A DNA stretch of 64,000 nt, taken from Blasia pusilla (taxonomy: Eukaryota). Below are positions 2,566 to 51,190 of this stretch, piece by piece. Every line of letters begins with the position of its first letter. Within the stretch, counting starts at the first letter, position 1. The notes under the pieces are model-generated. The model saw only the letters and a list, made by a program, of their open reading frames with translations. It had not been told where the DNA came from and did no database searches. The position numbers were made by a program, and so were the translations under genes. The DNA lies in the NCBI GenBank assembly GCA_050084515.1, contig CM114271.1, positions 11,532,001-11,596,000 of the forward strand, given 5' to 3'.

Positions 2566-4439
2566 GATGCAAAATGAGGGGGGCTGGTATTTTGGCAGGA
2601 GAGAGTAAGAGAGGAGAGGAAGAGAGGAAGAGAGGAGAGTCTCTCTTCAAAAAAAAGGGCCAAATCCGCCTCCTCTCTTCAAAACTTTATGATATATTTG
2701 AAATTTTTGTTTGCTTTCAAATCCATGAAATCTTTAGAAGAGAGTAGGTAGTGGTCCACATTTGGCCCTAAAAAAACCTCCTTTTTCCTTGGGGCAAAAA
2801 AAAAGTAGACATCATAAGACCACCACAAACATTTTTCCATCACTCTCCATGTGAGCCTAAGTTTCTTAACATCTCCTCATCTCGGTCAACAAAAAGCAGT
2901 GCCCTTGGTATTTTTGTTGGAGGACCACCCGGATGCCAACCCTAAGCATCTACTCCAAGGCATCTTGCCTGAAATTTCTACCTCATCTACTTACAGAACC
3001 TGCCCTAACTAAAGCCTCTTGAGCAACATTGATGGCATAGGCTTGACTGTCTCTTGGACATGCTTGAAGGTGAGATCTACCTCTATATTCTTCCCATGCT
3101 TGCTTCTTCTCAATCTGGTTCGAGCCCCGCCCTCGTTCACACCTCCACTTAGCTCCACCTGCACAAATCTTCGAAATCACTCCTTGGATCCTCTCAACTC
3201 TATAGATCTCTCCTTGGATTCTCAAGCTTTATGGCCTTCAAATGAGGTCCTCTAGGCTTCCATGAGGAATCTTCTAGCCCACAAGAGTCCAAGCATTTGA
3301 GCTCAGCCTCCATTGACCTCTTCTTAGCCCCTTATTCTTCATTTCTTGGCCCTAACAATCAGATCCACCCCTTGGTTCAAACCCTCCTCTACAACAAAGC
3401 AATCAAGCACTCTATCTCCTTCATTGGATACCCTGGAGACTCCCTAGTGCCTACACCATCTCCCTTGTCTCCTCTAGGCTTGAGGTCAATGGAGTGACTT
3501 GGCTGCATTATCACCTTGTACAATCTTCTTGACTTGTTCTTGGACGACTTCTTCTTTGGGCCTTTCTCTTGCACCACCTCCACAAGTCCAAAAACATATT
3601 CAGAAAACTTTTACAAACACCATTATGGGTTCAAAAATCTCGTCCTTTATTACCTCCGAAGGAACTCGAAATGTACATTGAACCTAGTCTATGATTTCTT
3701 CCTCGTCATCTATAAATTTACTCCTAACTCTCCTCGGTGACAGTACCAAAGGAATGTCCTGGGATTCAAGTGGCTCCTCTGGCCGGTTGTAGACGGGGAT
3801 CGAAAATGTTGGCAAATTCGAGAGCCTTGGCCCCCCCCTAGGTACACCTTAACGGTCCCATGTAACCTGTCTCGAGTCCCACCGCCTTCCTCGGCAAAAG
3901 ATACCTTGCACGCTCCGCAATGTGACACCCATGCAGTATCAATATCTGCTCCGTCCCCGGTAATACCACTATGGCAACCGTACAGGTAGAAGGAATCCAA
4001 CACGTCTGAGAGAAGAAAAGAATCCTACGCCTGCCTTTACGAGTTGAGGGGAAGGTGCCAAGGGAAGAAGCCCGCCAGACTGCCTGATCCGAAAGGGTCC
4101 GATCAGGCAACCTGTCGGAATCAAACAGGTTGCCTAGAGGTGGTAAAAAGGGTCCAGTGGTCAAAAAGAGAAAAGTTGCAAGGAGGAGAAATCCGACGGG
4201 TTGCGATGGTCATAAAGTGAAAATTGCAAGCGAGGAGAAATCCGACGGGTTGCAAAGTAGAAGACCGTGGAGTACATAGACGATCACATTCAAAAAGAAA
4301 AATGATCACCAAACATTTACAAGCACCACCATCGATCGAAAAAATCTCTTGCTTTATATCATCCGAAAAAGCTCAGAATCAGACATTTGATCTATTCTAT
4401 GAAATCTTTTGCCAAATTATCAAAAACTCCCTACTCCAA

Positions 4440-5014
4440 ACGCCGCTGCAGTCAAGTGGTCGTTGAGTTCTTTGAACTCACTCGTCATCGCCCCTGAGCT
4501 CTTGCAAAATCACTTTCGCCTTGCCCTCCCGATTTTGGGAATCGTTGGAAGTGACGATGGAGTCACTACCAAGGATGGCTCTGGAACCGAGCTCTCGGCC
4601 GGTGGAGAGTTTACGCCCCAACGAGCCTTTCGATTACGCCTTTGCCTCCTTGCAAAGGTAAAACGATTCTCGCCTTCCTCGAGGCGAGAGAATGTTCTGC
4701 CACTCTGCCAGCGCCTCGATACTCGCCCCTGAAAGGCCCACTAAGTCGAACACCAAGTCACCCGGCCTTGAGCAGAGCTCGATGAGCGTTTGCATCGGGT
4801 GGCGACTTTTCCTTCCCCGAAGCGGGTAGTCTTGTCTTGCATGTAAATTCCGAGGGGAATTGTACAAACTATCTAAGTGCACCCATCGAGCATGGATCCA
4901 CAGGATCCTGGATCTTGAACACCTGGAAATTGTGCTCGGGCGGAACGGGCAAAGACACGTAGGAGTGGTCCATCTAAATCAAAGACGAAACAATGTCGAA
5001 ACTAAAGAAGTCGC
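4440..5014 (-). CDS. Probable last exon: C-terminal SAM-binding half of an N6/N4 methyltransferase-like fold (frameshifted)
   Basis: RGRKSRHPMQTLIELCSRPGDLVFDLVGLSGASIEA, then after small indels WQSGR(N)IL.ALEE. Matches the LI..S.PGD.VLDPF.GSG.T..A...GR..IG.E pattern. The 3' end is approximate. Confidence 0.6.
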
Positions 5015-5039
5015 CTTGAGAAGATTTTCAATAATCGAC

Positions 5040-5420
5040 TTTGGATCAACTGCCGAGTCCGACGGGTTGTTTGTCCCGACCCACCAGCCGGAACCCGACC
5101 GGGTTGCGCTTGCTTTTGGGTTTTCCAAGTTGATTTTGGTTTTCGGATGCAACCCGTCGGAAGGCGTCGGGTTCTTTGGCCTAGACCAGCCCATGCTTGC
5201 CTGAGAGCAACCCGTCTGATAGCAACCCGTCGCTATTAGACGGGTTGCATCCAAAACCCAAAATCAACTGCAACCCGTCGGGTTCCGACGGGTGCAGTCA
5301 CACCGCGGTTTTCCCTCTGTATGTGGGAAAGATGCAACCCGTCGGAAACCGACGGGTTGCTCTCAACCGAGCATGGGCTGCTCTAAGCCAGCAACCCGTC
5401 GCCTTCTGACGGGTTGCTCA
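5040..5420. repeat. Intronic cluster of about 7 palindromic repeats
   Basis: For example tgcaacccgtcggaaaccgacgggttgc at 5333 and gcaacccgtcgccttctgacgggttgc at 5391. Confidence 0.9.
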
Positions 5421-5498
5421 CGGACAAAAAAAACCCAGACTGACTCTCATTCATCATTTTAAGATAATTGAAATTATTGTACAGGAATTGAGCCTTAC

Positions 5499-7506
5499 CC
5501 GAATCTGACTCGTTGCGGATCGGAGTGGGTACTCGTTTTTGATGATCCATGATTGTGCCGTCCTCCACTTTAGCGACCTCTTGACGCACTGGAGGTTGAA
5601 GAGCTCGTTCTCGCTCCCTCCAGTCAACACCAAGAAGCAACCCCTGTCACTCATATAGGCGTCTGCAAAGGAAAACAAAAGTACAATCTGGTCATAAGTG
5701 AGCGGCAGATTCCACTCAGGTACCTCGTCCGCCGGATTTTTGCCCCAAAGTCGCAACCTCGAGGGCAGATCGGCGATCAAGAGATCCACCGCAACCTCTT
5801 CCATCACTCCATTCACCGTCCAGGCAGCGTGCCCGTTTCGTTGGAGCTTCCGTCCCAGCGTTGTCAATTTTTCGATGGCAGTTGTCGACGCTTGAGAACT
5901 GAAGCTGTTTAGCTCATCCAGTAAAGAGGTGAACTGAAGGAGGACGCTTGTCCGGGTCGTTGTTTGTTTGTGTCTTCCCAAGGATGATGGGTTGTATTCT
6001 CCTTGGGACAACCCGGGCACCTCTCGCTTCCGCTTCTCCCTAGTCTGGGGACGGCTTGTCGGGGTTTCTATGACCTCGGATTCTCGTGGCGTTTTCTTCG
6101 CCGAGGACCTGGTCCGACCCTCTCTTCCCGCTCGTCCGGACGATTTCGCCTCTGGCCTCTCATCTTCAGGCTCTCTTTGGGAAGTCTCGCCTCTGAATTT
6201 TTCCCTCCCCTCGCCTTGCCTTTGAGACCCGCTGTGGATTTGTCTTTGGCTGTCCGGACCTTGAAGCCAACTCGGTGTCTCGTGGGCCTGCTCTTCTGCA
6301 TCTCCTCCGAAGAAGTCTTCAGGCTGGACGAAATTTGGGATGTCGTCTTGTCCTGAGGCCACTGCATCATGGAGCACTCGTAAGTCCTTATCCGTGATGT
6401 CTTCAGGGTTGTTGAAGTCGAGCCAAATGGGGCAATTCTCCACCTCCCAATCCGACATGTGCTGACCCATCTCCACGTCGTACATGGAGAATGTCTCTGC
6501 ATCCGGCGGCGAAGCCCACAATTTCAAGGCTGCCGGTAATTTTCCCCACGTACCTACGTTCTTACACTGGACGAGGTACCTGAATACCATCCGTTGGGCA
6601 GCTTTTAGTCGAACATTATCGGCCGTCTGCTCCTGTAGATCTCGCTTCTTCTTCGCTTGATCCCGTTTGTTACCCTCTACTTCTTCGTCAAGCTCTGCCT
6701 GAGGGAGGACGCAAACCTTGAACATGGTCTTGAATCCTGGGTTCTTGGTTGGCTTGTCCCCGATGTCGTCGAGCCAAACCTCGTAATCTCCAGAACTTTC
6801 AAGGTTTGCTTCCGGCGGAATGGGCTCTAATCTTCTGAGCTCCGCTTGCAGACCGTCCAGCACGGACTTCCCGATTACCCGCAACGCGTCCCAGAACGAC
6901 CATTCGCGTAGCCAATGCGAGATCACTGGATCGGACACACCCGGAGGATGGTGTGCCACCCTCTTCTGGGCCTCTAAGCCCTCGAGACTGATTTTCATCA
7001 GTCGTATCCTCCTGGACTCGCTAATCCCGGATAACGCAAAACGATGCACGCGATCCAGCGACACTTTCTCCCCAATCCGACCATGCGGATCTTCATCCCT
7101 CTTCCGCTGACGCTTGATAATCGCCTTGAGCTCCTTGTAGAACTCCGGACCAAGTTTGGGGTTGAGAATGCTGATGTATCGCTGCATCTTGCTCGCCGTG
7201 TATTTCGTTGCAGCAGATACAACAGCTTGGATGAATTTGGCGCGCTCAGACGCAGATACCTTCTCCCTCCGCTCCAGCTCCAGTGCAGCGCTTTTCTTCG
7301 CGGCCTGTATCTTCGACCAGCAAAGGATGGTTACGGCTGCATCTTGAGAAATAAACTTGTTTGCCCAAGTTTTCTTCTTAATCTGAGCACCCTTTGCAAG
7401 CATCTGATTGACGAGGGCATCGCCCAAGAACCCCCTGTACTCTCCCGGGTACGTCGTAAGCACCTTCCTCATCCAATGGTGGGTGACATTCCCCTCCGAT
7501 ACAATC
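5499..7506 (-). CDS. Large exon: helical region, disordered linker, N-terminal half of a beta-class amino-methyltransferase-like fold
   Basis: Lies in the 686-aa ORF 5454-7514. AG acceptor at 7508-7507 is in phase with the ParB exon and GT donor is at 5498. VDLLIADLPS (about 5761-5790) resembles motif IV D-P-P-Y, followed by AYMSDRGCFLVL and WRTAQSWII. Confidence 0.7.
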
Positions 7507-7519
7507 CTGCACATCCAAA

Positions 7520-8370
7520 CTCAACCCGTCAGGAAATTACATGGGTTCCTGCAACCCGTCGGACTCGACGGGTCGTCACAAGCTCAGGGTCGGATTCTAG
7601 CAACAAGCTAAATGATGCAACCCGTCGGACTCGACAAAGTTGCATTCAGATTTGCTAATGCCAGGTAAGCAACTTTCGCCGGACTCCGACGGGTTCCGGA
7701 TCGCACGCTTTTTCGGATGTTTTTAAGATTGCAATCGGTCGGACTCGGCGACTTGTATGATTGAACATAGATTTAACTAGTTGTTGGCCAAAGCAAACCG
7801 CCGGAGTCCGACGGGTTGCTCGATAGTCGCTTGTGAGGTTGTTTTTAAGAATGCAACTCGTCGGACTTCGACGAAGTTGCTCGAGGATCGACGCGTTTAG
7901 AAGGTTTTGCCCCAAAGCAACCCGTTGAGTCCGACGGGTTGCTTGCCTCGAAGCTATTTTTCCCCATATCAACCCGTCGGAGTCCGATGGGTTGATTTCG
8001 GCCAAAAACAGTTTCGAGGCAAGCAACCCGTCGAACTTCGACCGATTGCTTTGGGGCAAAAACCTTCTAAACCTGTAGTCACTCGAGCAACTCGTCGGAG
8101 TCCGACGAGTTGCATTCTTAAAAAAACAACCTCACAAGGCGGCCTGTCGAGCAACCCGTTGGACTCCGACGATTTGCTTTGGGCCAAAAACTAGTTAAAT
8201 CTATGTTCCATCAAACAAGTCGTCGGAGTCCGACGAGTGTCAATCTTAAAAAAACATTCGGAAAACCGTGCAGTCTAGCAACCCGTCGGAGTCCGATGAG
8301 TTGCTTTCTGCCTAAACAAACCTAACTCATTCATCAATCGAGCAACTCGTCGGAGTCCGACGAGTTGCAA
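7520..8370. repeat. Intronic array of about 14 palindromes at about 52-66 bp spacing, forming a roughly 630-bp foldback
   Basis: Copies near 7550, 7616, 7668, 7730, 7793, 7852, 7917, 7969, 8023, 8087, 8151, 8215, 8278, 8342. Spacers mirror each other around about 7982. Confidence 0.9.
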
Positions 8371-8389
8371 AAGTGTTAAAGATACTTAC

Positions 8390-8788
8390 GTGTTCATGGC
8401 ATGCATTGCCATCTCCACCGTCGCCATGTGATGAGGGTATGGATGAAGGACGATTTGCCTTCACGCAGAAATGTGCCTCCAATGAGTTGGGGCGCTCCTC
8501 CGCAAACTTGGTCCACGCCATGAACCTGTGATTTCCATCCCACATGAAGAAATGCAGATTCCTCATCCAGCTGAATTCCGTGCCCTCAACTTGCCTTCTG
8601 AAGTCCTGATCTCGCATCCTCCAGAATGTGTCGAGATTTTCCAAGTCCTCCTCGGTAACCAGAGCTTGGGTTCCATGCTCGTCGTAAGGCTGAACATAGA
8701 AGGGAGGAAAACTGTCCACGTAGGATGCTGTCGCCGCCGATTGTTTTAGCTTTGCGATGTCCTCGTCGGACTGTATGTCGCCGGACGA
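8390..8788 (-). CDS. Exon encoding a ParB/Sulfiredoxin-like domain (one apparent +1 frameshift near 8455)
   Basis: DEDIAKLKQSAATASYVDSFPPFYV...FFMWDGNHRFMAW. After frame correction against copy 2 it continues VKAIVLHPYPHHMATVEMAMHAMN. GT donor at 8389 (gtaagt). Confidence 0.65.
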
Positions 8789-9083
8789 GTTCAAGATTCA
8801 CCCGACCTTTCATGTGTCATTGTTGAAGAAATATCTTCAAGATAATGGACGTTTCACGCGGAGACAGGTGGTGAGACCGCACCCGGTCATCATAAATGAG
8901 AAGCCAAAGTTTGAGGTGGAGACCATCTTACGTTCGAGGCGTCGGGCCAACAAGTATGAATACTTGGTAAAATGGAAGGGCTACCATGTGAAGGAGGCGA
9001 CTTGGATTGCGGAGGCAGATTTGGAACACGCGCAAGAGTTGTTGCAAGACTTCAAGCGAACACAAGCGAAGCACATGCGTTAG
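8789..9083 (+). mobile_element. Chromovirus (Ty3/gypsy) integrase C-terminus with chromodomain, fragment
   Basis: IHPTFHVSLLKKY then FEVETILRSRRRANKYEYLVKWKGYHVKEATWIAEADLEHAQELL. Confidence 0.85.
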
Positions 9084-21926: not shown

Positions 21927-22515
21927 GGACGGATGGACGGCTGGACGACTAGGTGGACGGATGGACGGACGGACGGACGGAGGTAGGGACGGACGGATGG
22001 ACGGACGGAAGGAACCATTTCCGTCCATTTAGGTTTCCGTTCTGTATCGCAGTTCGTCCGTTCGAAATTCCGTTCCGTATCGTAGTCCGTCCCCTCACCC
22101 ATACTCTCCCGCCATCCCATTTTGAAAAAAAAAATGCATCGTCGTCGGTTTACCATGCGGATTAGCAAATGCTTCAGAACCGCTGTTCGTGTTACCATGT
22201 GGATTAGCAAATGCTTTAAAGGAAGATATGACGGATGGACGGACGGACGGATGGACGGACGGACGGATATACGGACGGACGGAGGTATGGACGGACGGAC
22301 GGAACCATTTTCGTCCGTTTAGGTTTCCGATCTGTATCGCAGTTCGTCCGTTCGAAATATATATCATAGTCCGTCCCCTCACCCATACTCTCCCGCCATC
22401 CCATTTTGAAAAAACAAATGCATCGTCGTCGGTTTACCATGCGGATTAGCAAATGCTTCAGAACCGTTGTTCGTGTTACCATGTGGATTAGCAAATGCTT
22501 CAAAGGAAGATATGA
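21927..22515. repeat. Subterminal (GGAC/GGAT)n tracts and a roughly 290-bp tandem duplication
   Basis: About 21955-22230 is repeated at about 22231-22515. Complementary (GTCC)n tract at 33500-33650. Confidence 0.9.
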
Positions 22516-22814
22516 TTAGCGAGGATTAGAGAGGGAGGTTCGGGAAGGTTGGATGAGTGAGGATTAAGAATCATTTTTCGGATTAAGAAGAGCTTTCGTC
22601 GATCAGGGATTGGATGTTCCGAAATGTTCGGGCATTGGATCCGAATACCTGCGTGTTCGGATTAGCTAAACGTAGAAGAAAAAACCAGAGTTTCTTCGAA
22701 TGCAAGCTTTTGACGGATAAAAAGGCTCTGTTTGGTGCACAGAGCGAATGAGCTGAACTTCTACCTGAGTACGTTTTATACTATTTTTAGTGCCGATTAA
22801 GAATCATTCGTCGC

Positions 22815-25740
22815 ATGGGGGGCAAGGGTAGCAGGCCAGAAAACCAGAGCACACGCCTTGGACTATCTCAAGGACGCGGATGCCAATTTCACTTCGCTGT
22901 AGTCTATCCAGCAGATCGTGTTGGTTTCTGTATGATAAGGCATCTTCATTCAAACCATGTGGATGGGGAAGGTCGGATATGCCATGGTGACTTGGATAAG
23001 ACAACAGATATTGCAAATGCAACTGTCGCCCCGAAACTAAGTTTGCACTGCAGGGATTTTGTAGAGCGCTTGTTACGAGTGAATGTAAGCCCCAAGGATA
23101 TCATGAAAGAGCATAGGAGGTGGATTCGCGTACACATCCGTGAAAAACCCAATCAGAAACATGCATGGGGCAGGGACGCCATGTTGAAGCATCAAGACAT
23201 ACTAAATATTAAGCATTCTATGCGAAGGCGAGAAGGGGGGTATGACGGAACCGATGACGCTACTGCAATTCATCACTGGGTACAAGCACATCCTGAGAAT
23301 GTAATTTACTACAGGGAGGCTATTTCCAAGTTGAAACAGTCCTTTTGCCTTGTACTTTCCACACCTTGGATGCTCCAGAATCTCTTAGAGCTAGGGAACG
23401 GCGTGGCCATCTCCATGGACGCAATCCATGGCACCAACACTTACGAGGTTAGCTGGCCTTGATCCTATCATTTGTTGTAGAATTGATGGAGCCATGGAGC
23501 AGGGAACCGGAAATGCTCCTACTTAAGGACTGTTTGGAATGCTGGAAATTTTGAACTTAGTGTAAAGTGTCTTCAAAGAATACATGATTCAAATTTTTAT
23601 TTTTCACTACTTTCAATGGACATTATAGGTGAGTCAATGCATTTATCTTTATCAGTAACCATTCCATTTTGTGCAATTTTTCTTACGTACACCCTGGTGC
23701 ATGTTTTCATTTATCTTCTATTCTGAACATTATGTTATGTGTGTTCACAGTATCAATTATTCAAATTTCTGGGTTTTGATAAGTTCCAGAATGGCCTGCC
23801 ATTGGTATGGGCAATCCTACAACGACATCAACACGAAGATCTGGTGGAGACCTTGTCCCAAATGAAGGACTGGGCACAGAGGAATATACACTCGAGCCTG
23901 CAAGATACAGAGGCAAATGAATGGAAGCCTTTATGCTTCATTGTGGATGATTCGAAAGAGGAACAATCTGCTATTCGAAATGTATTTCCAGGTATCCCTA
24001 TTGACCTCTGCTTATGGCATGTTCGCAAGAACTGGTTAAAGAATCTGCATCAACGAGTGCGTTGTCCAATTACGAAAGCGGACATGAACAGAGACTTGGG
24101 TGGTGTAATGTACTCACGTGATGAAGGTATATCATCAATCAAACAGATAGTACACTTACATGCTTTTCTCTTTCCTGGATGGTTTCCTCCACATACCGTT
24201 CAGTGACTAATAAATAATTTGCATATGGCATTGCAGATCCCATCGACGCCTCCTATCGGTTCATGCGCAAGTGGGTTGGATCATAACAACACTTTATGAA
24301 GTACTATGGAAGCTATTGGCATCCAAAAATTTTGAACTGGGCCAAGGGATACCGTAAGCACGCAAGGTCCAACCAAGATACGAATGCTGCAATCGAAAGG
24401 TGGCACCACACTCTAAAAATGCACCTAGCGTCCAGCATGCCCACGAAGCCAACAAGAAAATTGATATGGCTTGTGCAAATGCTCACTGGTGAAATAGAAG
24501 ATTTCTTCTGGTACCTAGGCTTCTTGAAACGAGAAGGCATGGTGAGAAACAAGGCCATACAAAAAGTTATGCTCATGGCAATTAAAAGGGCAAATGACAT
24601 ACCAGATAATCATGTCACATTTGAATTGGTAGATGGGAGGAAATGTGCGAAGGTGAAAAGTATTTCAAAGCCAGATGTTTGGCATGATGTGGTCGACTAC
24701 GATACAAGAGATGCTTGTACATGTCCTCGTACAACGAAGGGTTCACTTGTAAACATCAGGTCTGTCTTCATACAACTTTGATGTGATTTAGGGTCTTTAC
24801 ATCAGATTTCAGCAAGCTGAATTCCATCTGTTTTAACACACTCCGTCTGGCAGTAAAATGTCTTCTCCTCTGTGGCCACACAGAAGTTCAGTTGTTGTCT
24901 TGCTTAGGAACTCGCTTTGGAAGCAGAGCGGGCGGGTTTGAAAATTTGGTGCAAGAGCCACACAAAGATGAATTACATGAAAAATATCAGGAAGACGAAG
25001 ATGGAGATATTGGGCATGAGGGACAAGACCATGTGCTTGCTGAACCTACAGGAAGAGATCCGCCACCAAAAACCACCACCAAGGATGTTCGAGACATCAT
25101 GGAGAAATGCCTAAACGCTACCCTTGGGGTTCCATTCTCAGATATGCTCCTTGAACACTTGTTTCAACTAGTGCAGAAGGATTTAGATTCAGTTTTGAAC
25201 CTCAAGGCCAGGGTAGAGACTAACACTCACGTTGAAGGTAATGCTAATGACATTGCCACACACTTTCCTGAGCCGTTTGTGGGGAATGAACCACGTAACA
25301 GTAACTGCGCGAGGGCGCTGAATTGGCTAGACCGCTTGCAATTAAAATGAAGGTCTCGTGATCCTGTTAGAACTCAACCGAGTTTCGAAGAGCACCAAGT
25401 GGAATCCTTCCACAGAGCGAGGAAAACTAAGTTTTTGAACATGGAGGCAGAAATGGAAGGGTCGGCATGTATTAGTTTGGACCTAGTGGCACTATTGAGC
25501 CAAGTTGATGAGAACCCGTCCCATGGCTTAAACGCAGATTCCCAATGGCCTTTGCTAAACAACACACCTCATAGTACCTACAGGTCCGGCAGTGTCTCAA
25601 AGAGGACAAAAGTGGACATTATGCTTGATAGCCTTGCTGATTCATCTATTCCATTAGATTGTGAATTACAACCTGGAGCGATAGGAGAAACCAAAGACGC
25701 CATAATTATCTTGGACTCTCAAGAAGAAACTCTTATGTGA
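22815..25740 (+). pseudogene. MULE DDE transposase with SWIM finger, multi-exon, disrupted
   Basis: ISMDAIHGTN (D1), FIVDDSKEE (D2), LCLWHVRKNW (CxxH), TNAAIERWHHTLK (E), CTCPR..CKHQ (SWIM, frameshifted). Introns at about 23448-23750 and about 24127-24236. In-frame TAA near 24284. Confidence 0.88.
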
Positions 25741-27755: not shown

Positions 27756-30700
27756 TAATGTCGCCCCGAAGGAGCTCCACTTGTGGACAAAGTTTCCATT
27801 TCTAACGCATCCAATGCCGGAGTCGAGAAAAGGGGCAGCGGAGTAGAATGAAAGTCTCCGCCATCCACATCAGCATGCTGGTCTTCACTTGGCACCGCCT
27901 CCTCTCGCTGTATGTGTCCAGCTCCAGCCACCTAATTACCACCCGAAGTGTTTCAGCCCTAAATCAGCATTGTACGTTGCAGATTTTGAAGATCATCAAT
28001 CTACTTTACCCTAAAAGATGTGAGAAAGGGATGGAACACAACCTGGTCACTTCCGCTAAGCACGCCATCATTGTCCAAGTTCACAGCAACCGCTACAGGG
28101 TGTCCATCTCCCGTCGGCTCTTGCTGAAAAGCCACATGAATGTGTGAGGCAAGTACAACTCATCCAGAAAAAATAAATATCTCAAAGGATTTAGTATAGG
28201 AATGTTGTGTACCTGCAATCCCGTCTCTAAGTCCGTCTTCTTCTTCATTTCGGCCAGCATGATCCTTCTCCTCCTTTTCAAGGACTCTTTAGTTCTCCCC
28301 GTAGGATACTTGGATCTCACAGTAGGCTCACCTTGCACCACCACTTGGTCCGGGCTAGGCGACTTACGGTATCCACGGGATGCTTGGCGTGCACTGGACT
28401 CTACAGGATGAAGGCGAGGAGATTTCCTTGTATCACGCATGACCCTAGAAGATCTCTCCGTGGTGGGCCTACCGAATCTAGAGGTGGGTCTTAGATTCCG
28501 TGGGTGCACACTGACCAGCTCAATTGGCTCATCTGAAAATACAGGCTCTACGTCAGGCCGCCCCAACCTCTCCTCCATCCTGTGTGTTCCTGCCAAATCT
28601 GGAGATCTATGACCATCATCTACAGAGTCAAAGTCACTGGAGTCCACAATCTCCATATCCACACCTCCCTACACACATGTTTACCAAATGACAAATCATA
28701 TGAAATGCACAAGAGTAGAAAACATGCATAGAATGTACAAACTGTGCCTAGTTTCAATGGAGATGGGATAATTCAAGGACTAGAATGAAAGGACAAGATT
28801 TGTACCCTGGACACAGCATTAGCATGGCTGCAGCCAAGTCCATCCACATACATACGTGTCACTTTCTCTCTCATTTTTGCTACTATAAACGGTTTTTTTG
28901 TAATTATACTTGAATCGAGGGACAAAGTATTGCTCGCTGATGAACCAGGCATGCCGATGCGCTCTACGCATCCCATCTAATACTGCAAGAGACTGCTCAA
29001 CCTGTTGTTTTCTAGTCTCTAAACCTGCATCCCATCGAAAAGGTTTCTGCCTATCCATCATCCACACAGCAGATAAGTGGTGGAACTCAGCTCGACATCT
29101 CCAATATGTCGCACGATGTACCCTATCAGCAGGTACGTGGGAAGGGAGAAGCTTATGACCGGCCTCTATCCATCCCCTCACTATGGTCGTAGGGCGCACC
29201 AAAGCACTCTCCAATTCCTCCCTGGCCTTCTCAAACTCCTCCACCTTGGCTAAGCAAGCCTATGAGGTTTGCTGGAAATCTGCAGTACGATGAGCTTCAA
29301 ATGCAATCAGCAGATCAGTAAGTGCAGGCATGGGGACATACGGCCCGACAGCCCTTGTCGCATGGTCTTTGGCTTTGTTGAGGATAGCATTCTTCTTCGC
29401 CGCCAGTTAGCCCAACGTTGCAAAGATCGTGCCTCTAAGTGAGATTGCCGAGAAGGATGTGTGTGAGTCCTTGCATAGAAGCGTGTGTGTGAGTCCCTGC
29501 ATGGAAATCTGCAGTATGACAGAGATTCTGACCCTTAAGCAAAACCAGGCAATTACATGAGCAATCTATCTAGGATTCAATCACATAGTGGACCCACGCT
29601 TACCCTCGTCTTCATCGTCATCTTCTATGCCTTGAATATCAGCATCTGACTTCTTCTTCCCTGTGATACAAGGTGTTCCAGGCACTGGCCTAAGCCAGTG
29701 TGAAGCAAGGTGGGAGTTGAAAGCTTCCGGCGTGCGGAAAAATTCAATGCACTTGGAGCACAAGCAAACGTACTGCTTGTGCTCCTCGCTGTAGCAATAG
29801 TGGACCCACTCCACTGGATCCCTCCACAGTGATGTTTGGTAAGCCTGCTTTTGAGAAGGGGGTGGGCTTTTGCCCATAAACGCAGCAAACATGTTTAGAG
29901 GCTCAAGGTAGGAGGGCTCTTTCTCCACGTCTCCCTTGTAAAATGGGCCCTATGTAACAACATTATCAACCATACAAGTAAGCATGAAATAGTTACCTTG
30001 GGCATTGAAAGACAACAGGCACGAGATGAGCACACACTTCTCAGGTGGAATTTTATTTTCCCGGATGATAGCATACGCATATCAGGTTTAGGCTTATGTG
30101 TTAACTAGTAAATATGAAACTAAATAGAAAAGGAAGAGCTAGAGGCAGGGCAATGAAAATTCGCCATTCAGAATACTAGTATTCCTAGGACGTGCCCATG
30201 ACCGCCCAAACAAACCATCTAAAAAGTAGAAAGAGAAGCTTATGACCGCCAAGCTCAAGTTGTCTGCAAGGTAGAGGTGAGGCTTGCCCATGACCGCCAA
30301 GCTCAAGTCGTCTGCAAGGTAGACGTGAGGCTTGCCCATGACCGCCCAGCTCAAGTCGTCTACAAGGTAGACGTGAGGCTCGTCCATCACCGCCCAGCTC
30401 AAGTCATCTACAAGGTAGACGTGAGGCTTGCCCATCACCGCCCAAACAAGTCGTCTACAAGGTAGACGTGAGGCTCGTCCATCACCGCCCAGCTCAAGTA
30501 GTCTACAAGGTAGACGTGAGGCTTGCCCATCACCGCCCAAACAAGTCGTCTACAAGGTAGACGTGAGGCTCGCCCATCACCGCCCAGCTCAAGTCGTCTA
30601 CAAGGTAGACGTGAGGCTTGCCCATCACCGCCCAAACAAGTCGTCTAAAAGGTAGACGACTGACTTGCCCATCACCGCCCAAACCCGTCGTCTAAAAGGT

Positions 30701-31320
30701 AGACGTGGGGCTTGTTCGTGATTCTCAGCTTACATGAATACTATCCCTATATTGAAGATCTATATGTAGGTACTTCGGTATATGGTTTACGACAAGAACT
30801 AGGCCTCAAAAAGTAAACACAAACCCTAAATCTCCTAAACATTCCCTAGGATTTCAATATGCAGAAGATTGTCCTCCACGTGCAAGAAGATGAGTCAAGC
30901 ACACCTCATTAGTCACTTAGTTGAATTCGGTCTACCAAGGAACACAACTTGTATGACGAAAGAGGATGAACACACATGCACTATGTGTTAAGAGCTTACC
31001 CCGAGCTAAATTCAGAATGGCCAATGAGCTGATAACTTCAGATAAATCCACATGTTGGTCCTTTTCCAAATGTAGTTGATCATCAATGTCAGTCTGGCCG
31101 ATAAGGTAAACCGTTTTAGGAGTGACCCCAATCACCCAAGGGACGTTGTTGCTATCATCTACATCCTCTGTGGCATTTAACCTCCGCTTTAATCGGATAG
31201 TGCATACTAATTTTGATACCATGTTCTGTTGTGATGCCTCCATCAGATTCCCAGCACGTGGTACCCACGCATCCCTAGCTAAAAGCCACGTGGTACCCAG
31301 CATCCCTAGCTGCCTGTTCT
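27756..31320 (-). pseudogene. Second, convergent multi-exon gene inside the MULE (C2H2-like finger), function unknown
   Basis: Exon-like ORFs at 30932-31303, 29581-29928 (YVCLCSKCIEFFRTPEAFNSHLASHW), 28819-29244, 28093-28662 and a terminal exon ending near 27756, with GT donors such as cgg|gtaagc. Some stops present and the model is approximate. Confidence 0.55.
30241..30716. repeat. 47/48-bp minisatellite, 10 units, each with an internal hairpin CGTCTAC-aag-GTAGACG
   Basis: Unit catcaccgcccagctcaagtcgtctacaaggtagacgtgaggcttgcc. Later units alternate 47 and 48 bp. Confidence 0.95.
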
Positions 31321-34306
31321 ATGCAATGGTATGTATCTAGACCCTTGATTGCTAGACAAGAAACGTGTAACGTTTTCTGGTTTCCTAACTAGCATATTCA
31401 AAGTGTGCATCCTATTTGCATCACAGAACTGGACGATATTGGACATGATGCGATACGTACTACTCTACAAGCCCTACAACTGAGGCAAATTCACATTCAA
31501 GACCTAGGTCCACAGTAGTGGCAGATTTGATAGCAGCAAGGAATTTGAGCGCTTATGTGCTCCCCTGCAAGAATTGCAAATGCTGGTAAGGAACTTGATC
31601 TGTGTGAGCCATATTTCTACATCAGGAAGACATATTCATACCTACATCAAATATTTGGCTTTCTGGTGGGTTGGATCGAGTGGAGATATCCTCTAAATAT
31701 GCCTTGTATTTGTGCAGCAGAGATAGAAGGTCAGCCCACTGGTAAACATATAATGAGACGGAGTCTGAATGACTATTTACCTTATGTCTGTGCTCAAAGA
31801 AGTTCCATACGATGTACAATAGGCGACACGATGGTTCTGTATGGACGCCTAGAAGAGAACAAAGACAGAAAACGTTCAGGTTTTCTTCTCACTTAAATAA
31901 TTCATGACAGGGCAGCAGAACAAAGATTTGCATCAAGCGCCCTACAAATCTTCGCAACTGAAAGTATTCATTCAAAGACGATTAAGTCGATATATCCCTC
32001 ACAACCGCATGTTCAGTAACCAGTTCAAACAAAATTTATATACTGCAAATAGATTCAAATATATTTCCATTGCCTGAAAAGTTGCCACACGTTGTACAAT
32101 AGGCGACACGATGGAGCTGTATGAACGCCTGGAAAAATACAGAAACACCAACCTGGTAATTGTCGAACAAAGTCAGAAAGAGGAGAGAGGAGAAGAGAAG
32201 AGAAGAGAAGAGAACGGGCTCCTTAATTTAGTTCAACCTTTTCACTGAAACTCGGTCTTTCGTAGACCGCCGCACATTCCCTCTATCATGCTCGAGATTT
32301 ATGACCGTCATCGTCGTGATGACAACGGCTGAGGTGATGGGTGTTGCTCCCCTCCTGTGTTACCGAGTGTTACTCCTTCTCCAAACATGGGGTTTCACGC
32401 TTGCCAAACTGGTCTTGCAGTTGGCCGGCCCCTGTTGTTTCGAGATCTAGATGTGGTTGACATGGGACTTGATTGAGCGGGGTTGGGGATCGGAGACGTC
32501 GGCTTCTAGGGTCAAGATTGTGTGCAAAGCGAAGTCGTGAAGTACAGAGAAAATCGAAGAAACGAAGTTTCTCCAATCCTACTTCTGTTTACGGTTTCTA
32601 AGGAACTTTAGGTCCAGACGTCTACAATATTACGGTTGGTCATGATACAGTCCCGGGGATTATTGTAAGAGGGATCTTCATGAAAGGGTTCACATCCTTT
32701 CATGAGATGTGAACCCTGTCATCTCTGATGTTGCACTTCATCCTTAAGCCGGTTAGCTGAGATCGGAGATGAAAGGATGCGGGTGCAAGCTTGTCGCAAT
32801 CGAATCCAACAGGACTAGTTGGGCAGGTTTCTGTGTTTGAGCTCCATAGAGTACAAGTAAGGGGCATGTATACTAGCCTTCCGAGACTGCCGATGTTGCA
32901 CTTGACCCTTAAGCCGACAGGAGCCGCTAACCCGCGCACCATCGGGAAGGGATGTCTGGGAAATTGGGGCATGTATTTATTTGCCACAATCGCATTCCTA
33001 TGCGTTCGGCGTTCTCCTAGTGCTACAAATATGCCCAGAAAACTCTGCAAATTTGATCTCACAGCGGCTTCATTTCTCTTCCTCACAAATAAAGTTCCGG
33101 ATTGTAATGCATATTGCCCGTGGACTCCCTAAGGACATAGAACACCGTTTGCTTCGGCTACTGAAATTCTTAAGTGTACTAAGAGAAGAGAATCACCAAC
33201 TTCATAAACGGATGTCAATGTTGCTGATGCTCGGGTCCAAAGATTCGATTGAATGACTGAGCGGCTGATCAAAGAAAAGAGGAGAAAAAAAGAAAAGAGA
33301 AGAGAAACCCCAACCTCATAGGCCCGAAAGGCGATTTGTGGCAGAAAGAAAGCTCTCAAGGCGGATTTGCGGATTTGTGGCAGGCCGGGATGAAGCCCTC
33401 AAGTCGATCATTGGGACCAATTCCAAAAAGACGTAGCAGACCGAAAAAACGCAGCAGACTGGGTTTCAGGTTTGGCGTTCGGAGGTGAGGGTTCCGTCCG
33501 CCCCGCCCCGCCGTCTGCTCCACCCCGCCGTCCGTCCGTCCATCCGTGAGCTCATCCGTCCATCCGTCCGTCCGTCCAACGGTCCGTCCGTCCATCCGTC
33601 CGCCCATCCGTCCGTTCGTCCACCCGTCCGTCCTCCGTCAGACTCCGTCCGCTCAACCGAACTGCTGTCCGCTGCCGGTATTACCGACCCTAATCCCGTG
33701 CCGAACCGCCTGCGCCTAAGGCCTAATCTACGCGGCCTTAAACGCATGGCCGCGGCTATCTATGGCTTTCAGCAGAAGTAGAAGACTGAAATCATATGGA
33801 GTCTCCACCAAGCTAGCGACGTTTTTTATTCTCCAAGCACGAATGTGCCATTTATTCCGCTTGCCGCTGTGGAGCTCTATGACCCAAAGCTCTTAAAAGA
33901 CGGTCTTACAAGCAGCTCAGTCCTTCGCAACCGGTGCGTAGATTGTGGAGCTCCCCTTTCTCATAATCGGAATATAGTAAGGATGTGTAGGCTTTCCTAC
34001 CAGTGCAACGGCACCTTCTCTTGAAGTTCTACCTCTGCTTTGTCACAAGCATTGTTTATAAGTTTATAACCTAGACGGGTTCGCGCAATCCCAATTCCCG
34101 TTTATTTTGGCTTTGCTTTGAGCTATGATCACTATGTCATAGTGAGATTAAATGTTTGTGCATGGGTTCACTTTACTACTCAGATTAAGGAGACACCGTT
34201 GCTATCTCTCTTCTTTTTCTTTACATTTCTTAGGCTCTATCTCTCTTCTTTTTTTAATTTTCTTAGGCTTTGGAACATAGTGTACCACATTGTAGATGTC
34301 CTCTAT

Positions 34307-40290
<5,984 letters not shown>

Positions 40291-43200
40291 TGTTTACTAT
40301 GTACCTCCTCATCTCCACTAGGAAAGCTTAATTAGTTCTCCTCCGATGGTCCGACCAATATGATTACTTCTTATCACACCTTCACATCAGTGAGTGGTAC
40401 TCCTATGCAATATTCTCTACCTACAAATGTCTTCTCAACTCTCCACTATCAACCACACATGAGGCAAGAGAAGTAGCACTTTAACTTGAAATTCTCTTCA
40501 TGCTTTGAAGAGGATTTTAAAGCCAAATGTACAAAATTTGTACCCTTGAGGAAACCATTGTAGAAGGCAAAAGGTGCCTTTTGCCTTATACAATGGTTTT
40601 CTCACTCAATATATTATACCCAGGGAAGGTGAGTTTTATGCATGTGATCTTTGTACCACTAGTGAACCTAGGATGGCTCATAATGTGTACATGATACCAT
40701 CTTACATCTAGAAAATTCTAGCTATTAATCCCCTTCTAGCTCCTTTCTACAATTGACTCCCGTATTAGCATTATTCAAAAGTACAACGGATTCCACAAGG
40801 GTTTCTTCAACACGACATCACTTATAGACCCCCCTCTAATAGAATGGAACTTAGAATCTACCAGTGTGACTAATCTACAATCCACTATCTCTCGTTTAAC
40901 ATAACTCATGGCCATAAATGGCCTTTATTGGGACTACACATACCTACTTGAACTACCAAATCCGTCTACTGGCCTTGTTTTTCTACCCTCAACGTATTGC
41001 AATGGATGCTATTCTTAAATCATCACAAGATAAGGGCCAGGTAACCCATTGTATGTCTTATGATCCTTACAAGGCAGAACTTAATATGTTACAGGATGTG
41101 ACTTATTCCCTACCCGTACGCACAAGCAATGCTTCTCATATATTGGATAATGATTGCCTATTCTTTAGGAATAAAACTAATTGTAGAGAACCTTTCTTTA
41201 CACACTCATCATGTTCGTCCACTGATCGCGGATTAACCATAGAGATCGGGATATTTCTCTTTCCCTATCTCCAAGGAGTCTTTCAAAGTATTGGATCTTT
41301 CCTAAATTACATGAAATTAAGATCCAAACAACTTTTTATCCCTTTTTCACTTAACAAACCATATCCCCTAGTTATGCACCAATTGTGACATGCTATATCT
41401 CTCTGCTCTACATCTTGTTCTTTTATCCTTAATAGAAATCTAGAAAATTTATGAAGAGCTAAGCCACACAATCCAAAGAAAGACTTACACTACAATTTGT
41501 CGAAACACTCACTCAACCCTCAATTGCCTCAAACTCCAGCTTGGCATCATAGGCACCTGAAAGATCTCAAAGCTATGGTGAGTACATTGAGGATGCCACA
41601 CTTCTTCCTAACTACAATCTACAAGAGGGACAAAGACTGGACACATAGAAGACAAAGTACAAAAGTTCAATAACTCATATATTTGGAGAGATGCATCTGC
41701 AGAGTGTGCACAACTTTTGCACACCAAGTTGCACACATTTCTCACTCAATAGATTATCAGTCATATTCTAGAGTAAGTAATCACATATGAGTTACAATAT
41801 AGGGGCACTCTATACTGGCACATGATTTTTTTGGTTCAACAAAGTGATATCGATAGTGTTACCTCTGAGCTTTGTGCTCATATTCATAGCTTTGCATGTT
41901 CCCCCCCTAGTTTTTGTTTACTCACATGCTACTTGTAGTAGAGCTCATTCAATCCTTGGTGATAACATAACAACTAAAAAAATATACCGATGTTAAGAAG
42001 ATGTATGCATAATTAGGAAAAACCGGCAAAAAACTCAGTGTAGACTAGGTTTTCTTGTTGAGGCGAATATGGTCACAATTCCATTCATCCACCCGCAAAG
42101 TATGCCGTGGACATATTTTAGACCATCCCTCAATAATCGCATCGTTATACCATACCATCCATTAGTTCTATTGCTTTGAAGTGCACACATGAATATACAA
42201 AGAGTCTAAAACATTGATTGGTCCTTCTATCTTATCAAATATGCATTGAAGTCAGAGTTGTGATACCCACTTTTTATGAATTTGGTGCACTTATGTATAT
42301 TTTGGTAGAGAATTAGGGAGAAGTCTTTGTGAATAAAGAACAAAGATCTAGTTTTGTGACAATATGTACATATTGATAAAGGAGGAGAACATTGGAAGGG
42401 TATTAGTAGAATAAATTAAATGGATCTTCGATGAGAAGATGAAGAGTTTTGGAAGAATGAGGATTTGTCTTGGAGAAGTAGAACTTTTGGGTGCATGGAC
42501 TTTGGAATCAAAAAGAAGGCTGGAAAAGTTTAGTAACGAAGAAGGGAATATGAGAAGACTTCTCAAGCTTCTATGTCTATTGAGTTCCCTCGTGTCTTTG
42601 ATGGACAAGAATGTTTTCTCTTTCTTCATTCAGACATGTGGAGGTGTATGCTTGATCTGATTGGGTCCGTAGAGGGAAGGAAGACAGTGAGGGAGATGTA
42701 TGAAATCTCTTAGACAGAGAGTAACCTCCAAGGATAGATGAGTTCTAATATTAGGATGAGTCATCTACTCACTATGATCTAATGAAGGTTCTTTCTTGTT
42801 TACTCACGATTCAAGTCATAAGAATTCATAAAACTAATCCATTGGAGAAGATACCTTGAGGGAAAATACTTTCTACTACTAAAAGAAGTTGTCTTTGTTA
42901 ATTTTATTCTATTGAAAAGAATCTCTGATTCTTGAGTTCTTTCATAAATTATCTCTCTTTTGAAACAACGATAATATTCTTGGGGAATGAATTAGATACT
43001 ACTCGATAAAAAGATTATAATTTTCAAATTCTATGACATTACATAATAGATAAAGAAAGTTTAAGCACCACTAGCGGGGATTACACGCTTATCAATTTTT
43101 CTTAGATTTTGCTGGTGCGGATCGACGGGGGACAGCAGCCGAGTGTAGTGTGCGGTGGGGCGTCGGGTGTACGCGACCGAGGGTGTCGGGAAAGAGCAGG

Positions 43201-46200: not shown

Positions 46201-46989
46201 TACTAGATAACCGAGCTATAGTATTTCACTTGGTTAGTCCGACATGGATAGTATACCACCCGCAGTGCGTCCTACTTGATTCGGGAGCGCAACCCTTGAT
46301 GTTAGGGAAGGCGGCGTGTTTAGCGTTGGGGTCATGGAAGGCCAACATTGAGACTTGTCCCTTCCAAATGCAGACCTTGATTGGGGTCATGTCACCCATG
46401 TAGTATATGACTTGACAGGAGATAGTTGTCAGAGTCCATCCAGAGCATGCGACGGATATTGCTATGGTGCGCAGACGTGCGAATACGACACCAACTGAGT
46501 CGTACGATGTGTTGGTGGGAAGTATAGTGTTATATCCCCTAGGATTCATCCTTGACTTCTGGGAGGAGACCATTGCTTATCGGCTAGGGAGGCAGTCAGG
46601 TGATGGGCAGATGAGTTAGTTACCGATGCAGTTTGCAGGACGAGGTGGTCGATCACGAGGTGAGTCTGTGACCAGGTTTGCAGCTTTCATAGGTAGTGTT
46701 AGGTGGACAGGAGAGTTGTTGGAGGGGAACGCATATGCGGAGGATGTCCTAGTAGCGAATAGTCCCATGGAGAGACATGCCATGGCGGGTGTCTCTTTCC
46801 ATGTTGGCGAGACCTCTTCACCATTGTGGGGTACGACTCGAGAGCAATAGAGGAGTGTCGATGACCACGTGAGGCATGCGTGGAATCATGCCTTTATCCC
46901 GGAGCAACGAGAGTTAGGTGGCGATCCCACTCTTGGAGTGGGGACGTTAACCCCACTGGATATCACATCTGTTGTGTGGCAGTTTCCAG

Positions 46990-47812
46990 AGGAGGGTGTT
47001 AGATCTCTTCGCAGGGATTAGCACCGGATTGGCTGCAGTATTGCAAGCGGGCATACGGGTGCATCACTACCTTTATGTGGAGAGAGATGAGACTGCGCAA
47101 CAAGTATCATTATGTTACGTGGCGAGATTGGTCCATAGGTATTCTAAGTTGTTGTTGATATTTGCAGTACGGGGATATTAGCATACACTACCCACCGACA
47201 TCTCTTTGGTGGGGGCGTAGGATCTGGATAGAGTTGGCACCATTCATTTGGTGATTGCTGGATGGCCATGTCAGGGTCATTCATCAGCTGGCCGAGGATT
47301 TGGATTGCAGGATCCGAGGTCATGGATGTTTTAGGAGATGCTACGAGTAGTACAACACTTGCAGGAGAGTTAGACATATTCTTCAGCGTACATTTTGGAG
47401 AATGTGCTGTTGTTGGGAGGTACTGAGTCGAGCATACGATGGAGTCCAAAGAGCACCACATCTTATAGTGGACGCTATTTTGGGCTGAGGGCGTCGATCT
47501 CAGGTGGTGACGCGGGATGATAGACCACCTTTGGCGATGGCCAATAGAGTGGGGGAATTGAGGGTAGCCTTACCTATGTTGGTGAGCTTCCCAACATCCC
47601 ATGCCTTTTGTCAGGGAGGGCCATGCATGATTTGGGATAAGGTGACTTGAGCATTAGAGAAGTCTACAGCAGATGAGCGCGAGCGCGCCATGGGGTTTGC
47701 TACAAGTACTACAGCGGTGCCAAGTATGAGTGAGGCATCCCGGAGACAGGTGTTGGGGCAGGCTATTGACTTCAATTGTCTCACATGGATAGTCAGCCTA
47801 GGTATGGCTTAG
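46990..47812 (+). pseudogene. C5-cytosine DNA methyltransferase domain within gypsy pol
   Basis: Motif I VLDLFAGI, II YVERD, IV LVIAGWPCQGHSSAG (about 47250-47290), V GLQDPRS, VI YILENV (about 47390-47406), IX-X ERERAMGF..T..RRQVLGQAID. TAG stops present, and motif VIII appears deleted. Confidence 0.9.
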
Positions 47813-50800: not shown

Positions 50801-50971
50801 AGGGCGCACGATCCTACGTGTGCGCGAGGTATTATTGACCGCAATCCTCATGTTGGAGGGACGAGATGGTATGGTTTGGAAGGATCATATGCAAAATTGT
50901 GCGCCATGTCATCTTCCGAACGTAGATGGGATATTGGATCCGACCTTGGTAGTGGTACTTGTAGGCTTGAG

Positions 50972-51112
50972 GTGTATGTTGTGCAGATCTGCGAGGGGTG
51001 CAGCCACCATGTTGGTATGTGATGATTTTTCTTGAGGGTGGCATATGTCATGTCTGAACCCCCCTTTGATGTAGTTCCCACAAGAAAATGGATGTGTCCG
51101 AGATGTGTATAG
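50972..51112 (+). pseudogene. PHD finger at the integrase C-terminus
   Basis: CMLC..ATMLVCDDFS*GWHMSCLNPPL, frameshift, VVPTRKWMCPRC. C4HC3 pattern with one C replaced by F. Confidence 0.85.
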
Positions 51113-51190
51113 GGTAGTAGGACATATCAGAGAGATGTGATATTTTCTATGTGGAGTTGGGGGAATCCAACCGCCAGCTAGGGGGATGGT

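Follow-up and report, generated by a model that had tools for sequence, protein, structure and literature searches.

Palindrome arrays in the introns and flanks of a probably element-borne gene of Blasia pusilla: candidate recognition sites for the encoded, putatively ParB-like protein

Here, we describe arrays of a 27-bp palindrome in a 64,000-nucleotide stretch of the Blasia pusilla genome (GenBank assembly GCA_050084515.1, contig CM114271.1, positions 11,532,001 to 11,596,000; hereafter the window), where they accompany two decayed copies of a gene for a candidate ParB-like protein. Within the 64-kb window the palindrome motif is exclusive to the two copies of this gene. The feature is real, non-random and biologically coherent. 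We tentatively regard the arrays as sites that the ParB-like protein of the element itself would recognise, for which we infer binding, dimerisation and modification. That the arrays belong to the gene is supported by four observations: their exclusivity in the window, the conservation of the unit and not of the spacer, the presence of other palindromes beside the gene in distant relatives, and a conserved intron site. The gene copies and their palindromes are laid out as follows.

4107–4253, no strand assigned: minor cluster of palindromes and half-sites, past the stop codon of copy 1, absent from the initial annotation.
4634–4973, minus strand: exon C of copy 1, with a methyltransferase motif-I-like segment and a frameshift near 4877.
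4974–5498, minus strand: intron 2 of copy 1, 525 nt, with GT at 5498, AG at 4975–4974 and an array at 5058–5417.
5499–7506, minus strand: exon B of copy 1, aligning to residues 303–660 and 856–1028 of the homologue P0024, with a C-terminal D-L-P-S motif.
7507–8389, minus strand: intron 1 of copy 1, 883 nt, GT..AG, phase 2, with donor GTAAGT and acceptor CAG.
7551–8368, no strand assigned: array of 14 palindrome units, its right part a 64/128-bp tandem duplication and the whole an inverted duplication centred near 7982.
8390–8787, minus strand: exon A of copy 1, with a predicted ParB/sulfiredoxin-like domain, a W-D-G-N-H-R motif and a 1-nt frameshift near 8455.
53408–54200, plus strand: array upstream of copy 2, 25 half-sites, beginning directly after a GTAAGT.
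54791–55255, plus strand: open frame preceding exon A in copy 2, without a Pfam match.
55410–55787, plus strand: exon A of copy 2, a pseudogene with a deletion ahead of the donor site.
55788–56642, plus strand: first part of intron 1 of copy 2, containing 11 palindrome units.
63322–63673, no strand assigned: tail cluster of 3–4 decayed units beyond a gypsy gag-pol fragment, likewise absent from the initial annotation.

Both direct reading and a script found 14 units of the palindrome GCAACCCGTCGGAnTCCGACGGGTTGC within 7551–8368, with start-to-start spacings of 66, 54, 60, 62, 60, 64, 52, 54, 64, 64, 64, 63 and 64 bp. The initial annotation had described about 14 copies, 52–66 bp apart, at 7520–8370, the last five intervals being 63–64 bp, and these figures agree with our measurements. 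With up to 3 mismatches, the full 27-bp motif has 17 matches in the window (0.00 expected, 100 shuffles); its 13-nt half-site occurs 68 times with up to 2 mismatches (shuffle mean 0.73, largest 3) and 99 times with up to 3 mismatches (4–17 per shuffle in 20 shuffles). At this last setting, 90 of the 99 half-sites lie in six non-coding segments attached to the two gene copies, namely intron 1 (24), intron 2 (12) and the 3' flank (4) of copy 1, the upstream segment (25) and intron 1 (21) of copy 2, and the tail cluster at 63300–63700 (4). Exons contain only two, both in the 2-kb exon B; there are none in exon A of either copy or in what may be exon 1 of copy 2. The remaining seven lie in the rest of the window, at the level of chance. 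Thus, the same motif indeed fills 5040–5420, 53410–54200 and 55820–56645 (12, 25 and 21 half-sites), as the initial annotation had it, and its remark that the motif was not noticed in the exons stands, apart from the two half-sites in exon B. An Rfam scan of the window gave 0 matches, and the exact palindrome had 0 occurrences in the viral contigs that were searched.

Do the arrays truly reside in introns of the gene? In exon A of copy 1, the neighbouring frame past the frameshift near 8455 reaches the conserved A-M-H-x-x-N motif and stops at the GTAAGT donor. Exon B begins exactly at the point where P0024 continues, and the junction of intron 1 aligns with the homologues P0007 and P0024. Residues 4–382 of exon B match residues 303–660 of P0024 (E 2e-24), and residues 491–661 match residues 856–1028 (E 7e-10). 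Since splicing restores the conserved motif in register with intact homologues, intron 1 of copy 1 is, on the evidence of these alignments, a real phase-2 intron. RNA depth over it was at most about 1 and there was no joint, which is uninformative either way. For intron 2, a junction from 5499 to about 4973, the predicted acceptor, is present in two RNA reads that stem from a diverged copy. The location of the arrays in introns, as previously proposed, is hence upheld for both introns of copy 1. At 4877 the RNA reads have an additional base, and exon C of copy 1 is therefore frameshifted. At its other end, copy 1 is truncated at 8787, the 5' end of exon A, by a gypsy integrase/chromodomain fragment.

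Copy 2 is more reduced. What remains is the upstream array, a possible exon 1, exon A and the start of intron 1; exons B and C of this copy were not found. Its exon A is 77.5% identical in DNA to that of copy 1, and all three of its in-frame stops replace tryptophan codons. Because a GTAAGT immediately precedes the array at 53408–54200, this array may itself lie within a 5' intron, and the open frame at 54791–55255 could conceivably be the N-terminal exon of copy 2. The tail cluster at 63322–63673 probably represents another piece of the element. Neither terminal inverted repeats nor element ends were definable at the two copies. In one DNA run, 27,014 contigs fell on a 5-kb stretch at a likeness of at least 88%, and the summed depth reached up to 39,542 over exons compared with 35–441 in four array bins. 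From these figures we conclude that the gene family is highly repeated and that the arrays differ between copies.

A comparison of the two copies revealed which part of the arrays is retained. Between copies the units have a mean identity of 0.79, level with exon A (0.775), whereas the spacers have a mean identity of 0.45 compared with 0.46 for shuffled spacers. Indeed, blastn of copy 1 against copy 2 aligned only exon A and the units. The regular spacing in part of intron 1 of copy 1 has a local origin: Tandem Repeats Finder (TRF) reported tandem periods of 64 and 128 over 8022–8370, and in the same intron of copy 2 the units are 55–167 bp apart. The suggestion that 63–64 bp represents about six helical turns could not be maintained, and we rejected helical phasing as a constraint; the spacing reflects a local 64/128-bp duplication that is absent from copy 2.

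We also considered the secondary structure of the arrays. Intron 1 of copy 1 folds as a single hairpin of about 0.8 kb (-548.9 kcal/mol, z -34.7), in which the spacers pair as well as the units, and all four arrays fold more stably than their shuffles (z -34.7, -22.2, -11.8 and -6.7, with -11.8 for intron 2 of copy 1). With the units masked, inverted spacer pairing was found in intron 1 of copy 1 only (3 matches) and in none of the other three arrays (0 matches). A giant hairpin as a conserved feature was discarded on this ground. The constant feature is the short palindrome, as would be needed by a two-fold symmetric DNA-binding dimer.

The decay of the units is itself informative. Changes are mostly G>A and C>T (86 of 149), and the observed/expected ratio of CpG is 0.67 in the window and 1.38 in intron 1 of copy 1. 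Together with the tryptophan-to-stop changes in copy 2, the 86 of 149 changes and the window ratio of 0.67 bear the signature of cytosine deamination; the pattern fits decay at methylated cytosines, combined with an array that is young or a motif that is under selection. RNA reads in sense orientation cover palindromes at 7908–8408 whose flanks differ from this locus, so that the array of another copy must be transcribed, and at least 29 reads of one run (X20) share a single joint from 8010 to 8367. The centre of the palindrome reads G-A-N-T-C, the recognition sequence of CcrM/HinfI-type adenine methyltransferases. We ruled out that this centre is methylated as a general rule, as it is missing from the motifs of three relatives with arrays (L004, L017 and L008, described below).

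Are palindromic arrays a common companion of this gene in other lineages? Thirty loci from metagenome contigs were found by the family pattern, their proteins being 25–33% identical to that of the window. With a strict test that demands at least 3 palindromes of the same motif within 3 kb, 4 of the 30 loci passed (L004, L008, L017 and L030), a fraction to be read with the fact that many of the loci are only 1–2 kb long; shuffles never gave more than 2. The same test applied to chunks of the window gave 0 of 11 without the gene and 4 of 5 with it. At L004, 13 copies of a 24-nt palindrome, TGAGGTGCCGGTAAAGGCACCTCA, lie in a 138-bp tandem repeat upstream of the gene and in a later intron, and within the 138-bp repeat the palindrome is the best-kept part (0.94 vs 0.76). 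L017 carries a 20-nt palindrome, AGCATTCGGCGCCGAATGCT, in 75-bp repeats upstream of the gene, L030 has 3 palindrome copies upstream, and L008 (31% identity) has an array of the GAAGCCC/GGGCTTC type inside an 816-nt intron. This intron of L008 follows the same A-M-H-x-x-N motif, at the same site and in the same phase as intron 1 of the window, and at seven loci the protein match stops at the residue of the intron site. Judged from these alignments, the intron site is conserved. Inverted repeats of at least 40 nt are missing from the L004 array, and the L008 intron folds only locally.

The motif of the window was absent from the 168,266 bp of the relatives' loci, and the motifs of L004 and L017 were absent from the window. 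Motifs are thus lineage-specific among the relatives, and different palindromes accompany the same gene family. Different arrays in relatives are what a cognate pair of protein and site would predict. Beside this, L004 provides a relative at 4176–5500 that is apparently intact up to the limit of its contig, with open exons, introns of 73–87 nt and the 138-bp palindromic array upstream.

What kind of protein does the gene encode? A HMMER scan with exon A against 1.84 billion representatives yielded 78 relatives at E <=1e-3, 6 of them at E <=1e-10; a homologous-protein search with exon B as query gave no match. The family shares the motifs F-x-V-W-D-G-N-H-R-L-x-A-W and A-M-H-x-x-N. Among 53 aligned members (alignment A1), N89 is invariant, and D87, G88, H90 and R91 are each conserved in 90% or more; judged by known motif patterns and the fold matches, D-G-N-H-R may correspond to the Box II / P motif, the arginine-containing nucleotide-binding motif of ParB proteins. 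The AlphaFold model of exon A has a mean predicted local distance difference test score (pLDDT) of 79.6 and a predicted template modelling score (pTM) of 0.65. When it was compared by VIA-align with 48,161 chains, the top three were sulfiredoxin (Z 3.3, root-mean-square deviation 3.8, 61 residues aligned), Spo0J (Z 3.1) and KorB with cytidine triphosphate (CTP; Z 3.1, deviation 2.7, 62 aligned), all within Z 3.1–3.3. Of the 21 chains at Z >=2, 7 have the ParB/sulfiredoxin fold (ranks 1, 2, 3, 5, 7, 14 and 19), the others of that fold being SerK, human sulfiredoxin, PadC and SbnI.

Sequence profiles pointed in several directions. At E <=10, Pfam returned one sub-threshold match, on exon A alone (DUF1015, E 0.11), and sub-threshold matches pooled over the 53 members comprised DUF1015 in 5 (best E 0.0056) and DndB in 2 (E 0.066); NCBIfam held nothing relevant. 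In the Atlas feature space, exon A lies closest to fungal DUF3723 clusters (0.95 and 0.94), with a ParB_N cluster in 16th place (0.92). DUF3723 is a frequent passenger of fungal Starship elements, to which a distant link is conceivable. Taken together, the model hints that exon A might encode a real but distant ParB/sulfiredoxin-fold domain. Among the long open reading frames (ORFs) listed for the window no ParA-type ATPase stood out, no search having been aimed at ParA.

For the C-terminal part, weak matches point to a methyltransferase. PHROG gave three weak 'DNA methyltransferase' matches on exon C at residues 59–90 of the ORF (E 0.019, 0.19 and 0.2), and the Atlas lead for this part is MT-A70 (0.88–0.89); the methyltransferase-like part has no Pfam match. 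P0024 (1191 aa) is the only other long homologue that extends into this region. These matches faintly suggest that the C-terminal part could be a permuted adenine methyltransferase.

On this basis we propose the following mechanism. The palindromes would be cis-acting recognition sites for the protein encoded by the element's own gene. This protein would begin with a ParB/sulfiredoxin-like nucleotide-binding domain, continue through a long helical middle and end in an adenine-methyltransferase-like domain, and a two-fold symmetric dimer would bind each 27-bp unit. With arrays in the 5' segment, in introns 1 and 2 and in the 3' flank, the protein would accumulate on the DNA of its own element and could regulate or mark this DNA, for instance by autoregulation, methylation or protection from silencing. 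The self-recognition system proposed in the initial annotation is thereby retained as far as the gene-only motif in the window, the conserved units and the different arrays of relatives are concerned; the link to ParB, on which it also leaned, is its weak part. As for the gene itself being ParB-like, the D-G-N-H-R-type motif, the sub-threshold DUF1015 and DndB matches and fold matches at Z 2–3.3 favour the name, and PF02195, Foldseek and P1 ParB do not.

Several observations weigh against arrays read as sites of the element's own ParB-like protein. The fold assignment, the dimeric binding and any modification are steps that we infer. The exons had no Pfam match at E <=0.01, and the Pfam ParB N-terminal domain, PF02195, matched no exon at E <=10 and none of the 53 aligned members at E <=1. 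Of 24 relatives tested, 21 had no Pfam match, 2 had sub-threshold matches and 1 had unrelated domains. A profile search of the PDB gave no sequence match, and a profile comparison with phage P1 ParB gave a probability of 0.12%, i.e. no similarity. Structure comparison fares little better: the best fold match, Z 3.3, lies below the level that VIA-align takes as meaningful when standing alone, the best E-value of Foldseek against the PDB was 3.4, and a further structure search of the PDB was also empty. Canonical adenine methyltransferases carry D-P-P-Y/W in the catalytic motif. Because the window protein and P0024 have D-L/M-P-S in this position, catalysis is doubtful, and with it methyl transfer by the C-terminal part. 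Among the relatives, 26 of 30 failed the strict array test, the L004 intron at the shared site and phase is short and empty, its arrays lying elsewhere, and L009 has no intron at that site. Copy 1 and copy 2 are both pseudogenes. Finally, a second palindromic tandem array at 30245–30714, with about 10 copies of a 48-bp unit that each contain the 17-bp palindrome CGTCTAC-AAG-GTAGACG, is unrelated in sequence and has no ParB-like gene visible beside it; transposons of this genome may therefore tend to carry palindromic arrays quite generally.

The last point bears directly on an alternative that we consider unlikely, namely that another protein binds the units, the host element's transposase being the likeliest candidate, in the manner of the sub-terminal arrays of CACTA/EnSpm or Mutator elements, the introns being merely available non-coding space. 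Motif arrays bound by transposon proteins are a known pattern (CACTA TnpA, VANDAL), the ParB-like assignment is weak, and the window holds, besides the unrelated array at 30245–30714, a Mutator-like element (MULE) transposase gene at 22791–25350. Moreover, accessory genes of this type ride on Plavaka, Mutator, Zisupton and Sola elements. Such a transposase would not readily explain, however, why the arrays follow the accessory gene where no transposase is visible (L004, L008 and L017), nor why they occupy three or four separate internal non-coding segments and not element ends; the undefinable ends and terminal inverted repeats also speak against it.

Could the arrays instead be repeats without a function for the element? 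Selfish or neutral palindromic minisatellites, or nested insertions of foldback, miniature inverted-repeat transposable element (MITE) or introner-like type, might arise by slippage and template switching and have their units homogenised. Such an origin would agree with the 64- and 128-bp duplication reported by TRF, the inverted duplication that makes up intron 1 of copy 1, the plain 138-bp tandem repeat of L004 and the irregular spacing in copy 2. Homogenisation within an array, however, leaves unexplained that units are equally conserved across copies in which spacers are unalignable, and the recurrence of different palindromes with the same gene family and the conserved intron site are likewise not accounted for. 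The depth of 35–441 in four array bins against up to 39,542 over exons also argues against a separate high-copy MITE, if weakly, the contigs being short. We judge this origin distinctly unlikely.

A role of the arrays as RNA, in which hairpins transcribed from the introns would supply small RNAs that silence the element, as Mu killer does for MuDR, or would modulate splicing, is suggested by the very low folding energies (three of the z values above) and by the sense reads over another copy's array, at least 29 of them with one joint in run X20, and yet we find it improbable, since spacer pairing with units masked is confined to intron 1 of copy 1 (0 in the other three arrays), the L004 array lacks inverted repeats of 40 nt or longer, the L008 intron folds only locally, and a source of small RNA need not keep one short unit while its spacers drift.

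Returning to the arrays as sites of the element's own protein, we speculate on a more far-reaching version, which we rate as rather unlikely: a eukaryotic counterpart of ParB-parS. A nucleotide-gated protein of the ParB fold would load at lineage-specific arrays within the introns and flanks of its gene and bring a methyltransferase-like domain along the element, whose DNA would in this way be marked, regulated or shielded. Co-evolution of protein and motif would give each lineage a private code.

The surroundings of the two copies are eukaryotic and rich in transposons, with spliceosomal introns, fragments of long interspersed nuclear elements (LINEs) and gypsy elements, a MULE transposase and long (CT)n runs. 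The neighbouring elements are listed here.

1–1527 and 35833–40267: LINE copies with endonuclease and reverse transcriptase.
8790–9083: gypsy integrase chromodomain fragment, abutting the cut 5' end of copy 1.
22791–25350, plus strand: MULE-type transposase gene, split by introns, with PF10551 (E 4.8e-12) on 23727–24206.
44000–51000: gypsy-type protease/RNase H region.
59271–62725: gypsy gag-pol fragment, just ahead of the palindrome tail cluster.

The closest named relatives of the LINE reverse transcriptase are proteins of Ectocarpus and Chlorella, at an identity of at most 46%. The LINE sequences at 1–1527 and 37848–39402 are 90% identical, and (CT)n runs at 1416–1527, 34308–34512 and 39276–39422 terminate LINE copies. 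GC skew is positive (0.22–0.31) throughout 42001–52000, about 10 kb, the same place as a plus-strand gypsy element. The MULE transposase gene lies between the two copies of the ParB-like gene, which are inverted and face outward, at 14 kb from the gene; no link to the copies emerged. At 21955–22515 there is a 284-bp tandem duplication made of GGAC/GACG tetramer runs, and an inverted relative of it with CCGT runs lies about 11 kb away at 33494–33639; 21805–22013 matches 33769–33563.

The idea of self-recognition is already a published hypothesis for transposons of red and brown algae, the question having been raised by two recent algal genome papers. What the present analysis adds are candidate sites that can lie in introns of the gene itself, where the intron position is conserved, a unit that is conserved when its spacer is not, and relatives with different palindromes. 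We did not find in print arrays in a gene's own introns at a conserved site, the comparison of unit and spacer conservation, lineage-specific motifs across a family without Pfam matches, or arrays paired with a single ParB-like/methyltransferase-like protein; supplementary data may bear on each of these. If the arrays are sites of the element's own protein, they would offer a tractable protein-site pair for asking by what means giant DNA transposons of eukaryotes recognise their own copies and manage them epigenetically, and the window and its relatives provide concrete pairs for in vitro binding and specificity-swap assays. If the protein does not bind, the arrays would be another kind of transposon-internal repeat.

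How does the system compare with known ones? In plants, VANDAL VANC and CACTA TnpA bind short repeated motifs in the non-coding DNA of their own element and alter its epigenetic state or transposition. The arrays described here likewise repeat short motifs in the element's own non-coding DNA, binding being a candidate property in our case. The proteins are unrelated, however, and the motifs of VANC and TnpA are short, are not long palindromes and do not lie in introns of the gene itself. The VANDAL motif arrays are cited as an example in the preprint on Bostrychia moritziana (bioRxiv 10.1101/2025.02.11.637652).

Bacterial and plasmid ParB-parS systems, such as KorB and Noc (PMC12704722, in the part of it drawn on here), resemble the element in having palindromic sites, often several, and in keeping protein and site, here a candidate pair, on one mobile replicon. 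Their ParB is a dimer with a ParB/sulfiredoxin nucleotide-binding domain and a conserved arginine motif, and it forms CTP-dependent clamps. In contrast, the units of the window measure 27 bp and not 16 bp, each array has 10–25 of them, the host is eukaryotic with the sites in spliceosomal introns, and the similarity is only at Z of about 3. Fusions of the ParB fold to N6/N4 or MT-A70 methyltransferases in phages (PMC12704722, PMC4738411) would share with the predicted protein the ParB-fold N-terminus, the adenine-type methyltransferase partner and the mobile element; unlike it, they are prokaryotic or viral and have canonical catalytic motifs, and the consulted parts of these papers mention no site arrays.

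The closest published likenesses, judged from their descriptions, are accessory proteins of giant algal transposons (PAG2, PAG3 and Sola1 accessory proteins). In Bostrychia moritziana, the giant Plavaka (CACTA/EnSpm) transposons carry the accessory genes PAG2, with an adenine methylase and a SET domain, and PAG3, with a weak ParB-like part (HHpred E-value 0.29 for the N-terminus) and a 2-oxoglutarate (2OG) oxygenase; inverted-repeat tandem arrays lie beside PAG3 in several families, and binding and modification of the element by its own protein are proposed there (bioRxiv 10.1101/2025.02.11.637652). Similar to PAG3, our gene would encode an accessory protein of a transposon in which a ParB-like N-terminus is only weakly detectable, and it has inverted-repeat tandem arrays next to it, both in the window and at L004, L008, L017 and L030; similar to the Plavaka PAG genes, its copies are mostly degenerate. 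It differs in that the ParB-like and methyltransferase-like parts would be joined in one protein, whereas PAG3 has the 2OG oxygenase and the methylase is on PAG2, and in that arrays lie inside introns, whereas those of PAG3 are adjacent to the gene. A paper on Ectocarpus transposons describes a 1104-aa accessory protein with ParB-like and methyltransferase domains. Its domains are detectable, unlike the present ones, for which Pfam gives no match, and the portion of its account used here mentions no binding-site arrays. Exons A and B align to the 1191-aa P0024, comparable with the algal accessory type of about 1100 aa, the support for the methyltransferase part being weak. In the two-domain layout within a single protein of about 1100 aa, in the giant DNA transposon as its carrier and in the proposed self-binding or self-modifying role, the Ectocarpus accessory protein and the candidate protein of Blasia pusilla would be alike.

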